Shown here: one piece after another, positions 21,792 to 30,088 of the stretch
How positions within the stretch are numbered: position 1 is the first letter of the stretch
Layout of the letters: every line of letters starts with the position of its first letter
Source of the DNA: Bacteroidales bacterium
GTDB lineage: Bacteria; Bacteroidota; Bacteroidia; Bacteroidales; UBA932
Reading direction: 5' to 3'
Length of the DNA: 64,000 nucleotides
Assembly (NCBI GenBank): GCA_024401855.1
Contig: JAKSKH010000002.1
Span: 31,589 to 95,588 of the forward strand
Position numbers and translations under genes: made by a program
The notes under the pieces: generated by a model
What the model was told of the DNA's origin: nothing
Seen by the model: only the letters and a program-made list of their open reading frames with translations
The model's database searches: none

Positions 21792-24700
21792 ATGAAGAGA
21801 TTCCTTTTATTTGTTTTTCTGTTTTGTTCCGTTGTCCTGGGCGCTCAGGAAAGGGAAAGTGTCTGGCCCGCAGGCAGGATGCCTGATGCCCAAAGACATC
21901 AGATAGCTGCAATGACTTATGAGGCGGATGCACCCGGTTTTGATGCCGACGCCCACCGTATTGCTTATCTGGAGTGGTATGAAGCCCCGTCAGAACCGAA
22001 TGGAGGGTGTATGATTCTGATCTCGGGCGGCAGCTATCAATGTTGTTGCGATGACAGGTTGATCAAACTGTGGCGCGATACTTTCACCGGGCTTGGATTC
22101 CAATGCGTCAATTTTGTATACCGCACTCCCCGTCCGGAGGGACTTCCGATCTACCAGACAGCATGGGAAGACGGTCAGAGAGCTGTAAGGATGGTCCGCA
22201 GCGAGGCGGAACGCAGGGGTTTCGACCCGGAGAAGATAGGCACGATTTCCATGTCTGCCGGATCCCACCTTGCCCTTCTGCTTGCTACGAGTTCCCAGAC
22301 TCCTGCATATGGAAAGATAGATGCCATTGATGAAGTGCCCTGTCACATAAACTGGGCGATAGTCAACGCTCCGGCCTACGTGACTACCGACGGGCAGAAC
22401 GGGGACCCGGCTGAAAGGCTCGGTGTAGGGCCTGACGTAAAAATATCGGATGTCTTCAAGTTTGATGAAAAGACCTGTCCGGTCAGCCTTCACCATGGTG
22501 GAGAGGATCCGTACACCCCTATGGGTTCCACGCTCGTATACCGTCAGCTCCGCAAGATGGGGGTGCCTGCCGAACTCCATCTGTATCCTGGAAAGGGACA
22601 CGGTGCCTTCGGTCTTGAAAGAGGAATAGAATTCATAAATCAGATGGAGTTCGTGAAGCCCCTTGAACCTGAGGTTGCCATTGTTGAGCGTTATGCCGAT
22701 GACTGGGACAGGATAGACAAGATTACCGAGGACATATGGCCCGAAGGCAGGATGCCCTATGCAGATGAGGATCAGTGCCACCCCTATATAGAATGGAACA
22801 TACCGAGAGGCCGCAAGACAGATGCCGTGCAGATAATCTGGTCCGGCGGCTCCTATATGGGCAACGATCCCGACGGTTTTGAAGTGGCTCCTGCAAGACG
22901 CTACCTCAATGCACGGGGAATGACTGTCGTGACTTTGAAATACCGTACCCCCCGTCCTTCCGGAGAGAGCGGACTTGCCAAGCACGTGACGGCATGGCAG
23001 GATATCCAGCGAGCTGTCCGCCTGGTCCGCAGCGAGGCGCGCTCGCACGGGTGCGACCCGAATCAGATCGGCATTATGGGAAGCTCCGCCGGCGGTCATC
23101 TTGCAATGATGGGCGTCACTTCCTCCATGCAGCAGTCGTATGCCCCCATAGACGAGATAGACAAACTTCCCTGCAATGTGCAGTGGGGAATAGGCATTTA
23201 CCCCGCTTATGTCCTTTCAGACGGTTTTGACGATGTGAATGCCGGCAAGGGAAACAGCGATGAATACTACATCGCACCCGAATTCAATTTCGACAAGGCT
23301 ACGGCTCCCATGCTTTTCATTCACGGCGATTCTGACGGCTATTCTTCAATGGGCTCCGTCCGGGCGTGGGAAAAAATGCGCAATATGGGCGTACAGAGCG
23401 AACTGCATACGCTTGCAACACGCAACCACTGCTTTCAGAGAATCGCTTCTCCCGGAACGGGAAGTTACAGCTGGCTTGACCGTATAGGTGAATTCCTGGA
23501 CGAAAGGCTTGACGACTGGTGGGGGCACTATACTGCTCCCGAAGACCCTGCGGTACTGGCCAAACTGGATAAATGGCAGGACCTTAAGTTCGGTGTGATA
23601 TTCCATTGGGGCCTGTATTCGATTCCGGGAATTCTGGAATCATGGGCGCTATGTTCGGAAGAATGGACGTGGTCCGGGCGTGCAAATACAGGAATGCCTA
23701 TTGACCGGTTCAGAACCTGGTACTGGGGTTTGAAGGATGAGATGAATCCGACGGAATTCGATCCTGCGGCATGGGCTGACATAATGAAGGATGCAGGGAT
23801 GAAATACATGGTGTTCACAACCAAGCATCATGACGGTTTCTGTATGTTTGACTCCAAATATACAGACTTCAAGATTACAGAAAGTCCTTTTGGAAAGGAT
23901 CCGAGGAGCAATGTGTCGAAGGAAGTGTTCAATGCGTTCCGTGACAGGGGTTTCATGATTGGAGCCTATTTCTCCAAGCCGGACTGGCATTGCACTGATT
24001 TCTGGAATCCCCGTTTCTCGGCTCCGGACAGATTCCAGAATTATGACAGGAATCTACATCCGGACTGGTGGCGTTCATATGTTGATTACACAAAGAACCA
24101 GATGAACGAAATCACTTCCGATTATGGCAATATAGACATAATGTGGCTGGATGGAGGTTGGATTCCGGGCACAGACGTTGAACTCGGAGATGTTGTCAAG
24201 GGAGCCCGTGAGCGTAATCCCGGTATCATTTTCGTGGACAGGGCCTGCCGCGGTGAGTTTGAGAACTATCAGACCCCCGAGTGCACCATCCCTCCGTGCC
24301 AGTTTGATTTCCCTTGGGAGACCTGTGACGTGCTGGCAAGCTGGGGATGGGTGAACGATCCCGTTTACAAGAGTGCGGACAAAGTTATTTCCAACCTGAT
24401 AGAGGTCGTCGCCAAGGGTGGAAACTACCTTCTTGGCATAGGCCCCAGACCTGACGGGACAATTGATGAAGGGGCCCGGACTATTCTCTCCGCAGTCGGT
24501 GACTGGATGAGGAAATACGGCAAGGCCATATATAATACCCGTATTGCCAGGAATTACAATGACGGCAAGGTATGGTTCAATGCAGATAAGGATGGCAGGA
24601 CCCTTTACGCCCTGTACTCCTATGACGGAAGCGGAAGCATGCCTTCCACCATCGAGTGGACAGGAAATGTCCCCGCAGGAAAGATGATCCTGCTCTCTAC

Positions 24701-24803
24701 CGGTAAAACCGTCCGGTACAAGGTTTCAGGGGATAAAGTGAAAGTGACTCTGCCCGCTGGAATGCCGGCAGAGTCATTCGCGCTCTCTTTCTGCACACGC
24801 TGA
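21792..24803 (+). CDS. Fusion of two alpha/beta-hydrolase (carbohydrate-esterase-like) domains and a GH29 alpha-L-fucosidase
   Basis: Two homologous esterase units (SMSAGSHL; GSSAGGHL), then GH29 motifs KFGVIFHWGLYS, TTKHHDGF, WLDGGW; signal peptide. Confidence 0.88.
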   Translation: MKRFLLFVFLFCSVVLGAQERESVWPAGRMPDAQRHQIAAMTYEADAPGFDADAHRIAYLEWYEAPSEPNGGCMILISGGSYQCCCDDRLIKLWRDTFTGLGFQCVNFVYRTPRPEGLPIYQTAWEDGQRAVRMVRSEAERRGFDPEKIGTISMSAGSHLALLLATSSQTPAYGKIDAIDEVPCHINWAIVNAPAYVTTDGQNGDPAERLGVGPDVKISDVFKFDEKTCPVSLHHGGEDPYTPMGSTLVYRQLRKMGVPAELHLYPGKGHGAFGLERGIEFINQMEFVKPLEPEVAIVERYADDWDRIDKITEDIWPEGRMPYADEDQCHPYIEWNIPRGRKTDAVQIIWSGGSYMGNDPDGFEVAPARRYLNARGMTVVTLKYRTPRPSGESGLAKHVTAWQDIQRAVRLVRSEARSHGCDPNQIGIMGSSAGGHLAMMGVTSSMQQSYAPIDEIDKLPCNVQWGIGIYPAYVLSDGFDDVNAGKGNSDEYYIAPEFNFDKATAPMLFIHGDSDGYSSMGSVRAWEKMRNMGVQSELHTLATRNHCFQRIASPGTGSYSWLDRIGEFLDERLDDWWGHYTAPEDPAVLAKLDKWQDLKFGVIFHWGLYSIPGILESWALCSEEWTWSGRANTGMPIDRFRTWYWGLKDEMNPTEFDPAAWADIMKDAGMKYMVFTTKHHDGFCMFDSKYTDFKITESPFGKDPRSNVSKEVFNAFRDRGFMIGAYFSKPDWHCTDFWNPRFSAPDRFQNYDRNLHPDWWRSYVDYTKNQMNEITSDYGNIDIMWLDGGWIPGTDVELGDVVKGARERNPGIIFVDRACRGEFENYQTPECTIPPCQFDFPWETCDVLASWGWVNDPVYKSADKVISNLIEVVAKGGNYLLGIGPRPDGTIDEGARTILSAVGDWMRKYGKAIYNTRIARNYNDGKVWFNADKDGRTLYALYSYDGSGSMPSTIEWTGNVPAGKMILLSTGKTVRYKVSGDKVKVTLPAGMPAESFALSFCTR

Positions 24804-24807
24804 CCTG

Positions 24808-27795
24808 TTACAGCAATTTGAGTGAAATCAGGAATTCGCCCTGCTTGAGGCCGTTGCCCCAGGCACGGGCGTATCCCAATGACAAGGTGGTCTTCATGTG
24901 TGTGAAGAACACCATCTGTATATTCATCTGCGCCCCCGCTCCCAGATAGTTGCCTCCATCTGTAAGAAGGTCGTTGCAGAACATGCAGAATTGAATGTAG
25001 TTGGGATAGCATTGCAGGAAACCTATATTCTGGAACCTGATGGGGCAGAAGTCGAGTTCTCCTGTGAACTTTCCGAAACTGTGAGCCTTGATCTGGTCTA
25101 TCCTTACACCGGGGAATGCATTTGATGCGCGGAAACGGTTGATTGTGCCGCAGTCCACATAGTTGTTCCGGAATCCACCGAAGTAATAGTTTCCCAGTGC
25201 TGAGTTGGCGTCTCCGAAAGAATGCCCCGCCGCAGTCCTCAGCCAGAATGAATTATGCTGACCGACGGGAAGAAGGAACCCGAAGTCTCCGCTGAAGTCT
25301 ATGGATGGATATAATCTTCCGTCTGCAAGATATGTATAGGCATTGGCTGATAAAGTGTATCCCTGCTCTCCATCGACAAAGCCTATGGTTCTTCTCACTT
25401 TTTCAAGACCTGCATAAACGTTCGCTGTCTGGAACGAGGTTATTCCTTTGTCAACTTCAATCTCCTGATAAAGGGGGAGGGCGTCCATGTCTCCGTAATG
25501 TGCCAGGGAGGCACCCCAGTTCCAAGTGAATGGAGCCTGAATCTTATTGGTGTAATCGTATGCCAGCGAAACCTGATATCCTTTTCTTGAACTTCTCCTC
25601 GGACCGAACAGATCGTAGAAGTTGGTCGGGTTCCAGGCGGCTTTCAAAGTCCAGAATCTGTATTTTACATCTGCGCTTACGTGGAATCTGTTTTTCCATG
25701 CATTGTTGCTCCATGGGGAGGTGCCGACAAACAGATTTGCGGAAAACATGGAAAGGGGATCATAAAAAGACATCCTCGCTCCTAGAACCGGAGTCATGCT
25801 GTTCCATGCATTCTTGTCGGTAAAGCCGCTGATGTCCGGGTAGATTCCCTGAAAACCGGCTTCTTTCAAGGGTTTGTAGACTGAAATGGAATCATAAACC
25901 TCTCCGAAGGAAATGTGGTTCGGTTTGTTTTCATCATTGGCCAGCCCGGCAAGCCCGGGGTTGGCCTCAAAGGCTTTCTGACCAAGAAATTCCACACTGT
26001 TGGCATCGTGCAGTTCCTTGTATCCGAATGTGACAGGAGTCATACCTTCTGAAGAATATTCAAGGGCATATACTCTGTTGTCGGAAGCCAGGTAAGGTGC
26101 GAATATTCCCGTCTGGACGTTGGTGACCAGATTCAAATCTCCGGATTGGATGTCATATGACCATACGTTGGGAACACCGGTGTAATAGCTGAATCCAACA
26201 AGTTTGCTGTCATCCGCACTGAATCGGAACTGGCTCAGGTTGGAGTCTTCGAAACTGTTCAGGACAGTGTATTCCCCTGTTTCGTTTTCAAGGTCTTCGG
26301 TGTTGAACATCACCAGAGTATGCTCTCCTTTGAATCCCTGAACAGCAACTGTCAGATGCCTTCCGTCGTGCGAAACATCAAGGTCGCTCACACTCGTCCC
26401 GAACGGGAAAGTGTGGATTACGGTCTTGTTTTCAAGGTCTCTGTCATATTTTACCAGCAGACAAATGCCCTGATTGCTCATAAGTCCGTACAGACAGTCA
26501 TTCACGTTGTCGTAGCAGATGTCACCCACTCTCTGATACTTCATCCTTTTGACAACCTTTCCCTTGTCGAGATCATACACCACCAGACCTCTTATCTTTC
26601 CATTGCGGTCTGTCCATATCAGCCTCTGCCCTTTTTTGTCATATGCAAGATAGGCAGGATGATACATACGGCTGCCATCGATGTATGAGAGCCTTTTCCT
26701 GTCAGTTATCGTTTTTCCGTCCGTACTCAGTTCCAGCCTGTCTATCTGAGGGAAATCTCCCATTTGTGAAACAGCCGCGTACATGACGTGATTGTCTTCG
26801 TCCAGAATCATCGGAGAAACCGAGCCGAGATTTTCTTCAGTAAGTTTTGCGGTCTCTGTCAGGGGATATTCCGCAATTTTCTCAAGATTCTGACTTTGAT
26901 GCTCTTTCTCGAACTGCCCCCATTGTGTCCAGACATCGCGAAGCTTGCTCCCGTAGATATTCTCAAACTGGTTTACGTAGGATCTTCTGCTGTCGTCGGT
27001 CCTGTTGTAGAATTGAATGAGCTTGTCGTAGCCGTATTCGTAGGCAAGGTAGTTGATGAAACGTGTTCCGTACAGGTATGCCGTTGAACCCTGTTCCACA
27101 TCGGAAGTGGTGCCTTCCGTTTCAAGTCCAACTACGGAGAAGAAATCTTTTCCGTCTTTAACCCGGGTCCTGAAATATGCTTCGTCGTATCCGCCAAGTG
27201 CCCGGCCCACTCCTCCGCTGAGCCAGGTTTCCATAAAACAGGCTATTCCCTCCTGGTACCACCTTGGTGCATACCACCTTGGCGCATCCAGGTAACTCCA
27301 AAGTGCGCTTAAAGGGTATTGCGGATTCACAACCACTTTGTTCCTTGTGAAATTCCTCCACCGTCTGTCTTCCGCTCCGGCTTTATCTGTAGCGACAATA
27401 TGGGTATATTCGTGCTTGAACAGAAAATCGAACTTTTCCGTTGACGCAGATGGAAAATATGATTTGTTGATAGGTGCAAGGCTTATCTGCAAGGCTGTGT
27501 GCGGAATGGCTATAACTCCCGCATTGCCGTCATCGGCGAAATCCGTCAGAAGCATGTACGGAATCTCCGTAGGCAAACCTCCCCATATCTGTCTGTGCAA
27601 CGACCTGGCCTGATCATATTTCCGGATGAGGTTCGGAATATAATGAGACTGGTTCTTGTCTACGAAACATACATAAGCGCTGTCGCTTTTGTACTTGTAG
27701 ATTGTCTGCGCGCCAATACACGTGCTGTGGGCCATGGATATTATCCACAGCCCACAGACAAGTGTTATGATTCCTGATGTTCTAGTTTTCAGCAT
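24808..27795 (-). CDS. Exported zinc metallopeptidase (HExxH) + beta-propeller + probable outer-membrane beta-barrel (Omp85-like)
   Basis: Signal peptide; HEYTH at aa 128-132 and PRWYQEGIA (E182, gluzincin-type third ligand); TolB/WD40-like repeats (VSHDG, FSADDS); C-terminal third made of amphipathic beta-strands. Confidence 0.75.
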   Translation of the reverse strand: MLKTRTSGIITLVCGLWIISMAHSTCIGAQTIYKYKSDSAYVCFVDKNQSHYIPNLIRKYDQARSLHRQIWGGLPTEIPYMLLTDFADDGNAGVIAIPHTALQISLAPINKSYFPSASTEKFDFLFKHEYTHIVATDKAGAEDRRWRNFTRNKVVVNPQYPLSALWSYLDAPRWYAPRWYQEGIACFMETWLSGGVGRALGGYDEAYFRTRVKDGKDFFSVVGLETEGTTSDVEQGSTAYLYGTRFINYLAYEYGYDKLIQFYNRTDDSRRSYVNQFENIYGSKLRDVWTQWGQFEKEHQSQNLEKIAEYPLTETAKLTEENLGSVSPMILDEDNHVMYAAVSQMGDFPQIDRLELSTDGKTITDRKRLSYIDGSRMYHPAYLAYDKKGQRLIWTDRNGKIRGLVVYDLDKGKVVKRMKYQRVGDICYDNVNDCLYGLMSNQGICLLVKYDRDLENKTVIHTFPFGTSVSDLDVSHDGRHLTVAVQGFKGEHTLVMFNTEDLENETGEYTVLNSFEDSNLSQFRFSADDSKLVGFSYYTGVPNVWSYDIQSGDLNLVTNVQTGIFAPYLASDNRVYALEYSSEGMTPVTFGYKELHDANSVEFLGQKAFEANPGLAGLANDENKPNHISFGEVYDSISVYKPLKEAGFQGIYPDISGFTDKNAWNSMTPVLGARMSFYDPLSMFSANLFVGTSPWSNNAWKNRFHVSADVKYRFWTLKAAWNPTNFYDLFGPRRSSRKGYQVSLAYDYTNKIQAPFTWNWGASLAHYGDMDALPLYQEIEVDKGITSFQTANVYAGLEKVRRTIGFVDGEQGYTLSANAYTYLADGRLYPSIDFSGDFGFLLPVGQHNSFWLRTAAGHSFGDANSALGNYYFGGFRNNYVDCGTINRFRASNAFPGVRIDQIKAHSFGKFTGELDFCPIRFQNIGFLQCYPNYIQFCMFCNDLLTDGGNYLGAGAQMNIQMVFFTHMKTTLSLGYARAWGNGLKQGEFLISLKLL

Positions 27796-28879
27796 TGTTG
27801 AAGCCGTTTACTGATCCTTCGAAACCGTTTACTGCTCCACCGAAGCCGTTGACTGCACCGCCGAAGCCATTTACTGATTCTTCAAAACCGTTTACTGCTC
27901 CACCGAATCCGCAGATGATATCGCATACCACGTTGATTGCTCCACCAAATCCGTTTACTGATTCCTCAAAACCATTGACTGCACCGCCGAATCCATTGAC
28001 TGCGCCGCCGAAACCGTTTACTGCTCCACCGAAGCCATTGACTGCTCCGCCGAAACCATTTACTGACTCCTCAAAACCGTTGACTGATCCTTCGAAACCG
28101 TTTACTGCACCACCGAAGCCATTTACTGACTCCTCAAAACCGTTTACTGCACCACCGAAGCCGTTGACTGCACCGCCAAAGCCGTTAACTGCTCCACCGA
28201 ATCCGTTTACTGACTCCTCAAAACCGGCAAGTTTCTCTCCCCAGAATTCCATTTCGCTCTTGGAATTGTTCAGAACTGCATCCTGCATGCAATATACTGA
28301 CCATTCCGCAATCAGTTTTGCTACAGAAGCGCTTTCTTCTTCTGATTTTCCATTGATGTATGATGTGGCATTTTCTACGAATGCCTTGCCAATGGCAAGC
28401 TGGTTCTCAATTTTCTTGAATCCGACGAAAACGTTGTTTGACACCTGCTCATATTCCGGGGCCTTTTTTCCTTCCGCAAGTTTCTCAACACCCGAAACCG
28501 CTTTGTTGATAGAGTTCATGGTATTTGCAGCTTTTGCGTTGAGAGATTTCACCGGAGCGATTGCAGACTCAAGCTCGGGAATTCCGGCACAGACCTCAAG
28601 AGTCCTTGCAGTGAGGTTTTCCAGATTCTCCACACGGTTTTCAAGCAATGCATAGGCGTTCTTGGTAAGATGCAGGAAAGCTGTGTCATTCTGAATCTTT
28701 TCCTCGAGAGCGGATACCTCGGGATCTTCCTTTACATTATTATAGCGGGTCGCTTTTGAAATGTCTCCGCTGAGAAGGTCGCTCTGTGAATTGTTAGCGT
28801 TGAAGAGAAAACTGGCTCCGAATCCTACCAGTGCCGCAAGCACAAGGTAAATTGCAAAATTTGAATTTTTAACGTACAT
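27782..28879 (-). CDS. Exported/membrane-anchored protein with 21 C-terminal tandem heptapeptides (GFGGAVN/GFEESVN/GFEGSVN)
   Basis: Hydrophobic N-terminal segment, helical middle region, 147-aa repeat tail. Likely start ATG 28879 downstream of a -7 box (track start 28924). Stop overlaps the next gene by 14 nt. Confidence 0.85.
   Translation of the reverse strand: MYVKNSNFAIYLVLAALVGFGASFLFNANNSQSDLLSGDISKATRYNNVKEDPEVSALEEKIQNDTAFLHLTKNAYALLENRVENLENLTARTLEVCAGIPELESAIAPVKSLNAKAANTMNSINKAVSGVEKLAEGKKAPEYEQVSNNVFVGFKKIENQLAIGKAFVENATSYINGKSEEESASVAKLIAEWSVYCMQDAVLNNSKSEMEFWGEKLAGFEESVNGFGGAVNGFGGAVNGFGGAVNGFEESVNGFGGAVNGFEGSVNGFEESVNGFGGAVNGFGGAVNGFGGAVNGFGGAVNGFEESVNGFGGAINVVCDIICGFGGAVNGFEESVNGFGGAVNGFGGAVNGFEGSVNGFNNAEN
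27785..28225 (-). repeat. 21-bp-period tandem repeat, 21 units, protein-coding
   Basis: Units such as CCGTTTACTGCTCCACCGAAG, CCGTTGACTGCACCGCCGAAG and CCATTGACTGCGCCGCCGAAA. Differences among same-peptide units are synonymous on the minus strand. Confidence 0.95.
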
Positions 28880-28921
28880 GATATAAAATGTTTTTTTGTT
28901 TTTTGTTGTCCGATGACAATG

Positions 28922-29010
28922 CAAAGGTAGGCAAATGCAAATCTCTTTTCCTAATAAATTGTGGCGTTGGGAAGTATTTTTGTGAACTTGTTATCTTTTT
29001 TGTAGTTTTG
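28922..29010. promoter_or_regulatory. Divergent promoter pair for the repeat-protein operon (minus) and the AraC gene (plus)
   Basis: Plus strand: TTTG(28979-82)-N20-TAGTTTTG(29003-10). Minus strand: TACCTTTG at 28929-28922 with a degenerate TTAG -33 box 21 nt upstream. Confidence 0.6.
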
Positions 29011-29039
29011 GGAAACGGTTTGTTGGTTTGTGAATCATT

Positions 29040-30011
29040 ATGGACAGGTATCTTGACATACTTCCTGCTGCTGTAACTTTATTCTGGATTATCAGAATCT
29101 TTTTTCTCGGAAATGTGAATAAGGTTCAACTGTACATTGTATGGGGTATGATAATGGCCGTTCTCACCATCTTCTACGGCAGGTTCTTCGTTCTTTTCGT
29201 TTTCCCTCTTTTCCATATGGCTGTAAGGCAAAAAACCTGTTCCGGCGGTGTGACCAAGTGGGATTGGGCGGTTCTGCTTCCCTCGTTCCTGCTGGAGCCG
29301 TATACCGACACCCGTTTTTTCGTCGTTTTTCTGTGCCTGCAGATAGCCTTTATTACTGTATGGTCAGTGATGTCGGTCAGGAAATATGAGCACAGGTTTG
29401 CAGAATTGTATGATTCCGGGGGCGAAATGTCTGCGGAGGATATCGGCCAGGTGCTTACTTTCATGATTATCACAGTGCTTGTTTTTGTGATAGAGATGAT
29501 ACTCCCGGCATACGTGGCATCCTATTTCTGGGTGCGGCTCTTCCTGGCCTCATTCGTGGCCCTGTTGCAGTTCATGATAGGATATTATACCTTCAGGATG
29601 AAGGATACTTCGCTTATTGCCGAAGAATTGTCCGATGACAGCATGCTGGCAGACGGAAAACAGGAGGCTCTCTCCACTGATGATGAACTGATAAGAAAGG
29701 CTGTGGATGACGAACTTTTCCTTGACCCGACGATCTCCCTGGTTTCCATGGCCGAGAAACTCGGCACTAACCGTACATACCTTTCCAACAGCATTCATTC
29801 CTGCAGAGGTATGAATTTCTCGGATTTTGTCAACAGCCTTCGAATAGAATATTTCACACGCATTGTCGGTGAACTTGGGCCCGAGGCGAACATCAAGGAA
29901 GCTGCCATGCGCTCCGGATACAGCAATCTGCAATCGTTCTACCGGAATTTCTCCGAAATAATGAAGGTGACTCCTGCGGTGTGGATAAGGGAAAACCTGA
30001 AAGAAAAATAA
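29040..30011 (+). CDS. Membrane-anchored AraC-family transcriptional regulator
   Basis: About 6 hydrophobic segments in the N-terminal 185 aa; C-terminal FLDPTISL..MAEKLGTNRTYLS...NFSDFVNSLRIE...SGYSNLQSFYRNF. Confidence 0.92.
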   Translation: MDRYLDILPAAVTLFWIIRIFFLGNVNKVQLYIVWGMIMAVLTIFYGRFFVLFVFPLFHMAVRQKTCSGGVTKWDWAVLLPSFLLEPYTDTRFFVVFLCLQIAFITVWSVMSVRKYEHRFAELYDSGGEMSAEDIGQVLTFMIITVLVFVIEMILPAYVASYFWVRLFLASFVALLQFMIGYYTFRMKDTSLIAEELSDDSMLADGKQEALSTDDELIRKAVDDELFLDPTISLVSMAEKLGTNRTYLSNSIHSCRGMNFSDFVNSLRIEYFTRIVGELGPEANIKEAAMRSGYSNLQSFYRNFSEIMKVTPAVWIRENLKEK

Positions 30012-30016
30012 ATTTG

Positions 30017-30088
30017 TACCCCCTAGGCGAATCGAACGCCTATCGTAGGAACCGGAATCCTAAATTTTATCCATTAAACTAAGGGGGC
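30017..30088 (-). tRNA. tRNA-Arg(CCG)
   Basis: GCCCCCTTAGTTTAATGGATAAAATTTAGGATTCCGGTTCCTACGATAGGCGTTCGATTCGCCTAGGGGGTA. Acceptor stem, TAGGA/TCCTA anticodon stem with CCG, GTTCGA T-loop; CCA not encoded. Confidence 0.95.

Follow-up and report, generated by a model that had tools for sequence, protein, structure and literature searches.

A gene pair under putative membrane-AraC control in a Bacteroidales genome as a possible lineage-specific version of a widespread envelope proteolysis module

We analysed a block of three genes (positions 24808-30011) in a stretch of 64,000 nucleotides from contig JAKSKH010000002.1 of a Bacteroidales bacterium (assembly GCA_024401855.1). The whole stretch is referred to here as the window. 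The block encodes a 995-aa outer-membrane protein with a peptidase, a propeller and a barrel, a 365-aa protein ending in an array of heptapeptides (the tail protein, or partner), and a divergently transcribed 323-aa regulator of the AraC family. That these three genes form a real conserved module can be stated firmly. As to what the module does, our preferred interpretation, to which we give slightly less than an even chance, is that the block represents, in a form particular to this lineage, a widespread envelope proteolysis module in which the tail protein is the substrate and the operon is under AraC control. The invariant core of the module consists of a PrsW protease, the partner and the barrel protein. 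We favour a proteolytic module because the partner is the only inner-membrane-anchored core protein and because it has a juxtamembrane motif in common with the anti-sigma factors of the module.

The gene of the 995-aa protein (24808..27795, minus strand) was defined by its open reading frame (ORF) and translation. The ORF of the tail protein spans 27782-28924 on the same strand; its likely start is the ATG at 28879, which gives a gene of 27782..28879 and a protein of 365 aa comprising membrane anchor, helical domain and heptad array. Between the stop codon of the tail protein (27782-27784) and the start of the 995-aa gene (27795) there is an overlap of 14 nt. The AraC gene (29040..30011) lies on the plus strand and is separated from the tail-protein gene by a divergent control region of 160 bp (28880..29039). 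All gene features on which the original prediction had been built, namely the ORFs, the 21 heptads, the HEYTH motif, the divergent AraC gene and the 14-nt overlap, were found where it had placed them.

In order to assess whether the genes belong together, we turned to relatives. Among 201 genomes sampled from the same GTDB family, 37 matched the 995-aa protein, about 24 of them strongly, and a homologue was found in none of the 13 other genomes of the same genus. An iterative hidden Markov model (HMM) search with the N-domain of the tail protein placed a partner next to the barrel gene in 18 of the 19 complete loci analysed in this sample, either upstream on the same strand, convergent or divergent. 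In a scan of species genomes the module was carried by at least 563 of them, including rumen and gut Bacteroidales. The best 80 loci among these carriers, on which all counts out of 80 are based, come from Rikenellaceae, Cryptobacteroides, Prevotella, Xylanibacter, Muribaculaceae, Paludibacter, Prolixibacteraceae and Lentimicrobiaceae. Of the 80 loci, 69 have a partner and 68 a PrsW-family protease (PF13367); 61 have both. No fewer than 7 of the 11 partner-less loci end at a contig edge, and tandem partner paralogues (two to four copies) occur in 10 loci. PrsW was first seen through precomputed Pfam matches and was then confirmed by HMM and Pfam searches. The claim that the three genes are a unit was thus borne out, since the partner adjoining the 995-aa homologues in 18/19 and 69/80 loci has the same helical N-domain and a variable short-repeat tail. 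Natural fusions were also observed: in three protein clusters PrsW is N-terminal to the barrel protein and joined to it via the former signal peptide, and in one chimera, described below, parts of an anti-sigma factor and a partner are combined. A chance adjacency of three unrelated genes is excluded for practical purposes and has next to no probability, given the linkage conserved across at least 80 loci in varied gene orders, the fusions, the AraC orthologues in place and a conserved intergenic motif.

We also noted, in further genera of this GTDB family, paralogous proteins of 940-990 aa (L142-L147) with HE..H at 123-131, where the window protein has its HExxH as well, a PD40-type propeller and a presumed C-terminal barrel. 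Their genes lie in a conserved housekeeping context (uvrC-like and groEL-like genes) and are accompanied by neither partner nor PrsW nor AraC; the association is therefore specific to the subfamily of the window protein. The existence of such a partner-less family in a housekeeping context is one of the points that would suit a different explanation, in which the block encodes an envelope quality-control protease similar to BepA or DegP. The peptidase-propeller would then degrade misassembled outer-membrane or periplasmic proteins, the tail protein would be a regulator, inhibitor or adaptor, and the regulators would induce the system under envelope stress. Cassettes of extracytoplasmic function (ECF) sigma factors, which are found in some relatives, are typical stress modules, and for Omp85 proteins with N-terminal domains other than POTRA, roles near the BAM complex and in proteolytic quality control of the periplasm have been discussed (PMC4104836). 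We nevertheless consider this explanation rather improbable. It leaves unexplained the selection on exact short repeat units, the turnover of the units between lineages and the tandem partner paralogues, and the patchy distribution (37 of 201 family genomes, 0 of 13 in the same genus) speaks against a general housekeeping role.

The comparison also showed that the three genes are not a complete system as originally described. PrsW, the near-universal third core gene, is missing from the window locus and present elsewhere in the genome; sigma and anti-sigma genes are likewise absent from the locus. An intact module-type PrsW of 335 aa is encoded at G000:C66:33812-34816 (L056; E 4e-91 to the family HMM), isolated among large glycosidase-like genes, and could serve the PrsW-less window locus in trans. 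Contig C56 holds a second PrsW-family ORF of 239 aa, which is more distant and matches the module PrsW profile more weakly. The same genome carries a second paralogous locus split over the ends of contigs C8 and C34 (L031, L057), the repeat tail having probably broken its assembly. On C8 (G000:C8:1-1973) we found a multi-transmembrane (multi-TM) AraC paralogue (846-1973; 26% identical to the window AraC over 221 aa) together with N-terminal fragments of a partner. On C34 (G000:C34:85880-88816), the barrel gene is missing its first 230 aa, and the PrsW gene after it has lost about 128 internal residues. A site-2 protease of the M50 family is also present in this genome.

The regulators of the module are interchangeable and always membrane-linked. 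In environmental relatives (12-14 of the 80 loci), an ECF sigma factor (Sigma70_r2, r4_2) and a TM anti-sigma factor of about 250 aa are encoded between PrsW and the partner, and a multi-TM AraC is attached in 14 loci from gut and rumen relatives. The latter fall into two distinct clades: the AraC of clade one is divergent from the partner, as in the window, and that of clade two is on the same strand, after PrsW. Altogether, a membrane-linked regulator is attached in about 28 loci and none is adjacent in 52. The fact that ECF sigma and anti-sigma factors replace AraC in environmental relatives suggests envelope proteolysis linked to transcription and not a pheromone circuit in particular.

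Two unusual loci were noted in addition. At L124:3497-4274, STAS-like and RsbW-like proteins, recognized by eye from their N-terminal sequences, replace sigma and anti-sigma between the PrsW and partner genes, which suggests a partner-switching pair. In the other locus (L148:5678-12704), PrsW and a sigma gene truncated to 66 aa are followed by a chimera (P0197) that joins an anti-sigma N-domain to a partner ectodomain and a D-A-E-K-L-G tail, and then by a normal partner and barrel gene. The chimera looks as if the TM and juxtamembrane segments of an anti-sigma factor had recombined with their homologous counterparts in a partner. The possibility that partners in general are N-terminally extended anti-sigma factors was rejected, as the partner domain starts at residue 1 in the top 150 representatives, apart from one chimera.

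The AraC of the window has about five N-terminal TM segments (aa 1-200) according to a hydropathy scan, and a C-terminal helix-turn-helix (HTH) domain at aa 216-323 (29685-30008), within which aa 237-317 match HTH_18 above the cut-off (E 6.3e-13). Its presence near related loci had been put forward as a check on the original prediction, and full-length orthologues were indeed found at the same divergent site, upstream of the partner, in L059, L060, L061, L062, L064, L066, L067, L070 and L073. Over both the TM and the HTH region, three such orthologues are 59, 40 and 37% identical to the window AraC; the barrel proteins of their loci are 69, 64 and 59% identical to that of the window. The intergenic repeat array described below is conserved as well. 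In the clade of the window, AraC can therefore be firmly counted as part of the gene unit.

The control region contains three exact direct repeats of TTCNCAA-N4-ACAA (28959-28973, 29000-29014 and 29020-29034, minus strand), whose starts are 20 and 41 bp apart. These are the only exact copies in the 64-kb window, and the 10 exact copies present in nine orthologous loci (178 kb) are confined to the 2.1 kb of AraC-to-partner spacers. In an intergenic alignment of eight loci the ACAA cores are invariant, and so is a TA..TTTG box with the repeat array upstream of it. Since Bacteroidota promoters differ, a sigma-70 promoter scanner was left aside and promoters were sought as TAnnTTTG boxes. In the window the box, of the Bacteroidota -7 type, reads TACCTTTG (28922..28929, minus strand) and lies about 43 nt upstream of the tail-protein ATG; it is assigned as a consensus match. 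On the opposite strand, the array overlaps candidate -7 boxes of the AraC gene itself (28975-28982 and 29003-29010). We read the array as a candidate AraC operator of the partner-barrel operon.

Two side observations may be added. The TAnnTTTG box is found 65 times in the entire window, with 41 copies expected and 65 never attained in 100 shuffles; many copies are just upstream of gene starts. In AraC, aa 66-75 (29235-29264) form a loop after the second hydrophobic stretch with the clade-conserved motif S-x-x-G-[IVT]-x-[KR]-[WF]-D. This motif resembles the S-G-D-I-S-K of the partner's juxtamembrane segment and is lacking in the second AraC clade; the likeness could be due to chance or to a common protease site.

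The 995-aa protein consists, in this order, of a signal peptide, a zinc peptidase with an HExxH motif, a six-bladed TolB-like propeller, a helical linker and a 16-stranded Omp85-type barrel. An AlphaFold2 (AF2) model built on an alignment of 26 homologues had a predicted local distance difference test score (pLDDT) of 86.5 and a predicted template modelling score (pTM) of 0.84. More than 2300 homologues of the protein were found, every one of them named 'hypothetical'. The signal peptide (aa 1-29, 27709..27795, minus strand, as are all coordinates of this protein and of the tail protein below) is an N-terminal helix in the model and is predicted to be cleaved just before Q30, a residue that is invariant in the 26 homologues.

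The peptidase domain of clan MA (aa 30-312, 26860..27708) carries the zinc-binding and catalytic motif HEYTH at aa 128-132 (27400..27414) and an E-G-I-A motif (27241-27252) in which E182 is the candidate third zinc ligand. Residues H128, E129, H132, E182 and E189 are invariant in 26 homologues of 37-85% identity, and the enzyme is, judged by its sequence, likely to be active. Twelve of 15 family members match Peptidase_MA_2 (best E 3.8e-8), with the window protein below the Pfam cut-off; a profile search of the domain against PDB sequences returned no relative. The next domain (aa 313-600, 25996..26859), previously described as propeller-like repeats, could be specified as a six-bladed TolB-like beta-propeller. 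Its best VIA-align match is E. coli TolB (1c5k_A; Z 22.5, root-mean-square deviation (rmsd) 3.0 A, 242 aligned residues), and Foldseek listed TolB and WD40 propellers. As fold searches with the entire protein gave propellers as their sole matches, the barrel was folded as a separate domain. Between the two lies a short helical linker (aa 601-646, 25858..25995) whose secondary structure is seen in both AF2 models; no POTRA domain was matched by Pfam in the 995-aa protein, and aa 601-646 are modelled as short helices.

For the barrel (aa 647-995, 24811..25857), 16 strands were obtained in both AF2 models, and the model of the separate domain had a pLDDT of 81. The earlier wording of a barrel-like C-terminus can now be replaced by an Omp85-type 16-stranded barrel. 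The top 17 rows of the VIA search are members of Omp85 only (Z 15.9-20.4), and other porins such as Occ and AlgE reach Z 14.5 at most. The best match is BamA of D. radiodurans (8xnb_B; Z 20.4, rmsd 3.8 A, 286 aligned residues); Sam50, FhaC (Z 17.1), CdiB (Z 16.9), TamA and Toc75 are further matches. Foldseek concurs, with BamA as top matches (E 3.6e-7). By sequence, no match to PF01103 (Bac_surface_Ag) was obtained in the 995-aa protein at E up to 0.1, and a profile of the barrel found no relative among PDB sequences. A conserved loop of 42 residues between strands 11 and 12 (aa 860-901, 25093..25218) contains Y-F-G-G-F-R-N-N-Y-V-D, of which Y871, F872, G873, G874, F875, N877, N878 and D881 are invariant in the 26 homologues. 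The loop stands at the position of loop L6 of Omp85 proteins and may be its equivalent by that position, with the canonical VRGY/F motif absent. As modelled, the outer-membrane protein belongs firmly, in structural terms, to the Omp85 superfamily. By analogy with the N-terminal domains of other Omp85 proteins, its peptidase and propeller are most likely held in the periplasm.

The tail protein had been described as exported. Its heptad tail was confirmed, and for the protein as a whole an anchor in the inner membrane is the better description. The N-terminal hydrophobic segment F8-F26 (28802..28858) has a conserved G-F/Y-x-x-G pattern, in which G19 is nearly invariant among 21-24 family members, and we infer that it is an inner-membrane anchor rather than a cleaved signal peptide. 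This would leave a cytoplasmic part of about 7 residues only. Directly after the membrane segment comes the juxtamembrane motif L-S-G-D-I-S-K (aa 36-50, 28730..28774), the best conserved stretch of the family and a candidate PrsW site. In the family the motif reads L-S-G-D/T-I-x-K, with G38 invariant and I40 nearly so, and a similar [SA]-G-[TS]-[ILM] motif directly follows the TM helix in the anti-sigma factors of the module. The motif may thus be a PrsW cleavage site. The periplasmic domain that follows, about 170 aa (28226..28729), reads as helical from its sequence. Searches of the tail protein gave no match in Pfam or among PDB sequences and, with the N-domain as query, no usable match in the ESM Atlas; the family itself comprises 685 clusters at 50% identity (E up to 0.001). 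Matches of the tail to MINT_RAM7, SlaB and TigB were rejected as low-complexity artefacts far under the cut-offs. When the tail protein was modelled in complex with the peptidase and propeller (aa 29-600), the score was 0.00 and the fold of the partner uncertain, a result that weighs neither way.

The last 147 aa of the tail protein are 21 heptads (27785..28225), mostly of the GFGGAVN and GFEESVN types: GFGGAVN occurs 11 times, GFEESVN five times, GFEGSVN twice, and GFGGAIN, VVCDIIC and GFNNAEN once each. The self-identity of the array at the DNA level is 74% (Tandem Repeats Finder). The 11 identical GFGGAVN peptides are encoded by nine DNA versions, which differ on average at 3.1 synonymous sites per 21 nt. 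Since copies of the same peptide have diverged codons, the units are kept at the protein level by selection and are not the product of fresh slippage. The unit VVCDIIC (27911..27931) stands in register inside the array. Two strain variants (94% identity) retain it, with 8 and 9 units ahead of it as compared to 14 in the window protein; past the Cys unit, both match the window tail except for the last unit, which is GFSNAEN instead of GFNNAEN. The same two variants (P0125, P0126) were compared by eye with the N-terminal part of the window protein (28760-28879). Their helical domain is seemingly identical and their first 40 or so residues, with membrane segment and linker, are clearly different, which suggests recombination or diversifying change confined to the anchor.

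Relatives differ widely in their tails. In the closest relative (L058, barrel 85% identical), the tail units have 8 residues, have V-N-G-F in common with the window heptads and include an in-register C-x-x-x-C unit. Environmental clades have degenerate [FT]-D-[AS]-E-K-L-G motifs every 8 to 12 residues. Gut and rumen clades have near-perfect arrays of lineage-specific units of 6-10 residues, such as NAPGLN, GLLNEINQN, DQQMGRV, SGLNLDGVN, NSVSEQVK and NVQKMS, with GFGGAVN/GFEESVN in the window. We regard [FT]-D-[AS]-E-K-L-G as the ancestral tail unit, which was later replaced by the lineage-specific units.

Identical units that are preserved by selection despite synonymous drift, and lineage-specific units beside a conserved N-domain, are also what might be expected of a peptide-signal circuit. 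Here the zinc peptidase would cut a multi-core tail into heptapeptides, which would exit via the Omp85 barrel and be sensed by the membrane domain of AraC, or by the anti-sigma ectodomain in relatives, closing an autoinduction loop. The precursor-like tandem paralogues would agree with this, and so would the adjacent regulators, none of which lacks a membrane or extracytoplasmic part. A weak match, driven by the repeats, to the multi-core precursor TigB of a ribosomally synthesized and post-translationally modified peptide (RiPP) has E 2e-5 and is well under the cut-off. However, a modifying enzyme and a dedicated ABC exporter are absent within about 10 kb, 52 of the 80 loci have no adjacent sensor-regulator, and many relatives have degenerate tails and not exact repeats. 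A conserved domain of 170 aa plus a membrane anchor also far exceeds what a leader peptide needs. Furthermore, Omp85 barrels are generally known as handlers of proteins and, to our knowledge, are not known for the release of small peptides. We regard such a circuit as unlikely, though worth keeping in view.

The structural neighbours of the barrel point to yet another explanation, that of export in the style of two-partner secretion. PrsW would free the tail protein and the Omp85 barrel would translocate it; the tail would then serve as surface fibre, adhesin or variable coat, and the peptidase would trim it or remove the helical pro-domain. The TpsB transporters FhaC (Z 17.1) and CdiB (Z 16.9) are among those neighbours, the partner gene is adjacent and often translationally coupled, as in the 14-nt overlap, and hypervariable tails with strain-level polymorphism in unit number are typical of surface-exposed repeats. 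For exported toxins, Zhang et al. (2012, PMC3482391) have proposed that N-terminal PrsW domains act as releasing peptidases, which is a useful parallel from a different system. Against export stand the lack of POTRA domains in the barrel protein and of a two-partner secretion (TPS) domain in the partner, and the lack of any resemblance to Fap or curli components. Neither an Omp85 beta-signal nor an aromatic last residue is shared by the partner C-termini, where the last residues are mixed and N is the commonest. Export of this kind therefore seems quite unlikely to us.

In the envelope proteolysis module that we prefer, three core proteins would cooperate. The first would be the partner, anchored in the inner membrane, with a periplasmic domain that reads as helical and a disordered array of one short motif. 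The second would be the Omp85-type barrel, holding the zinc peptidase and the TolB-like propeller in the periplasm, and the third the inner-membrane protease PrsW, here presumably the one encoded elsewhere in the genome (G000:C66). Both proteases would act on the tail protein: its repeated motifs would be bound by the propeller and cut by the adjoining zinc peptidase, and PrsW would cut at the juxtamembrane L-S-G-D/T-I-x-K, the motif common to the anti-sigma factors of the module. The membrane AraC, in place of the ECF sigma and anti-sigma factors of relatives, would bind the TTCNCAA-N4-ACAA repeats and control transcription of the operon. The control by AraC, or by sigma and anti-sigma, may be responsive to the state of the module.

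Several points weigh against this interpretation. We infer the substrate role of the tail protein, and the cleavage steps are proposals. The absence of an adjacent regulator in 52 of the 80 loci means that the link to transcription is not in the core. As the tail protein has nearly no cytoplasmic part, cutting it could not by itself transmit a signal into the cell. PrsW is missing from the window locus and the copy on C34 is broken, and PrsW may therefore be dispensable or be supplied in trans by C66. In 10 of the 80 loci there are tandem paralogues (1 to 4 copies) with hypervariable tails, and these would suit the role of cargo or precursor no less than that of a sensor. The Omp85 barrel is a relative of TpsB and PlpD and might instead serve to export the tail protein or to expose the peptidase at the surface, and the anti-sigma/partner chimera beside a truncated sigma gene may be a recombination accident. 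Finally, the TTCNCAA-N4-ACAA motif was derived from the AraC-to-partner spacers themselves, and its counts are descriptive and not an independent test, yet the lack of exact copies outside these spacers is striking.

A bolder form of the proposal would combine elements of the above. The block might be a trans-envelope device in which the POTRA domains of an Omp85 barrel have been replaced by a protease and a peptide-binding propeller. An anchored precursor with lineage-specific motifs would be turned into short peptides or a surface tail, and AraC or an anti-sigma factor would read the product. This would amount to a form of peptide communication or self-recognition native to Bacteroidota and possibly to other phyla. 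We hold this device to be a speculative and unlikely case.

The block lies between a GH29 stop codon (24803) and a tRNA-Arg(CCG) gene (30016-30088), with a gap of 4 nt on each side. The metabolic neighbours within about 10 kb are unrelated to the block and comprise pyruvate:ferredoxin oxidoreductase (PFOR), a pyridine nucleotide-disulphide oxidoreductase (dihydrolipoyl dehydrogenase-like), an aldolase, LplA, a trimodular esterase-GH29 protein and a pyridoxal phosphate (PLP) enzyme. The esterase-GH29 gene (21792-24803) encodes 1003 aa with alpha/beta-hydrolase (esterase) regions (best matches aa 222-573) and a complete GH29 alpha-L-fucosidase domain (aa 579-911). The block (24804-30015 with its gaps) abuts the tRNA gene and the barrel gene has no homologue in the 13 other same-genus genomes; lateral acquisition is plausible.

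Omp85 proteins are central machines for building and crossing bacterial outer membranes. The branch with a protease and a TolB-like propeller, catalogued since 2014 with no function attached, now gains a fixed genetic context of a partner with fast-evolving repeats, PrsW and interchangeable membrane-linked regulators, and this context makes an orphan architecture a testable pathway. The AraC version is a compact unit of regulator, operator and operon that can readily be tested with reporters. If it is true that the tail is cut into lineage-specific peptides, a major gut phylum would have, in this module, a new way of making peptides or of signalling at the envelope.

The closest known relative is the 'WD40-like Omp85' cluster that was defined within the Omp85/TpsB superfamily by Heinz and Lithgow (2014, Front Microbiol 5:370, PMC4104836). 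According to Table S3 of that paper, its members have an N-terminal region that resembles M1 aminopeptidases (Phyre matches), combined with a TolB-type propeller and a barrel of the BamA/TamA type. The cluster was collected through PF01103 and PF07676, and non-POTRA subfamilies were accepted in the superfamily. The window protein has the same three-part architecture (Z 20.4 to BamA, Z 22.5 to TolB, and an HExxH domain of clan MA); as it matches neither of the two Pfam families, it represents a divergent branch of WD40-like Omp85. The paper gives no function for the cluster and mentions neither tail protein nor PrsW nor regulators, and we found no later functional work on this architecture in the literature. 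The original prediction knew of no described system with such a layout. This does not hold for the fusion architecture, which was catalogued in 2014, and does hold for the gene module, of which we found no description in the literature on PrsW in Bacteroidetes or with ECF factors, on Omp85-WD40-aminopeptidase proteins, or in the ECF reclassification paper. New here are the AraC-regulated form with neither PrsW nor sigma factor and with conserved operator-like repeats, the selection on repeat units, the strain-level polymorphism in unit number and the contrast with the partner-less paralogous family.

Two-partner secretion (FhaC/FHA, CdiB/CdiA) and the type Vd protein PlpD resemble the block in having a 16-stranded Omp85 barrel beside a dedicated repeat-rich partner. 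The window system differs in having no POTRA and no TPS domain and in the membrane anchor of its partner, and the N-terminal part of its barrel protein is an enzyme with a propeller. In the Tol-Pal system, the propeller of E. coli TolB binds a disordered Gly/Ser-rich epitope of colicin E9. TolB is the best structural match of the window propeller, and binding of a disordered peptide is the role that we propose for the latter. However, the window propeller is fused between a peptidase and a barrel, the N-terminal domain of TolB is absent, and genes for TolA, TolQ, TolR and Pal are absent from the window locus.

The Fap amyloid system was offered as an analogy in the original prediction. Fap and curli have in common with the block a repeat protein encoded beside an outer-membrane barrel and a peptidase, but the analogy fails at both of the latter: the window barrel is of the Omp85 type and not FapF or CsgG, and the peptidase is a metallopeptidase (HExxH, clan MA) and not of the C39 type of FapD. 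No C39 peptidase was matched by Pfam; FapF and CsgG are missing from the match list of the barrel, which by itself is no exclusion. The repeats of the window family are units of 6 to 10 residues that vary by lineage. Multi-core RiPP precursors differ in turn by the modifying enzyme or dedicated ABC exporter, of which none is encoded within about 10 kb of the window locus.

The sigma-W system of B. subtilis (sigma-W, RsiW, PrsW, RasP), in which PrsW makes the site-1 cut in the anti-sigma factor RsiW, resembles the module in that a PrsW-family protease is tied to membrane-bound transcription control, by ECF sigma and anti-sigma factors in the relatives. The window locus, in contrast, has no sigma factor, anti-sigma factor or PrsW, and the regulator there is a multi-TM AraC. 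A cytoplasmic anti-sigma domain is lacking in the tail protein, and the outer-membrane peptidase has no counterpart in the single-membrane Bacillus pathway. Moreover, PrsW stays with the other two core genes even in the 52 of 80 loci that have no adjacent regulator.

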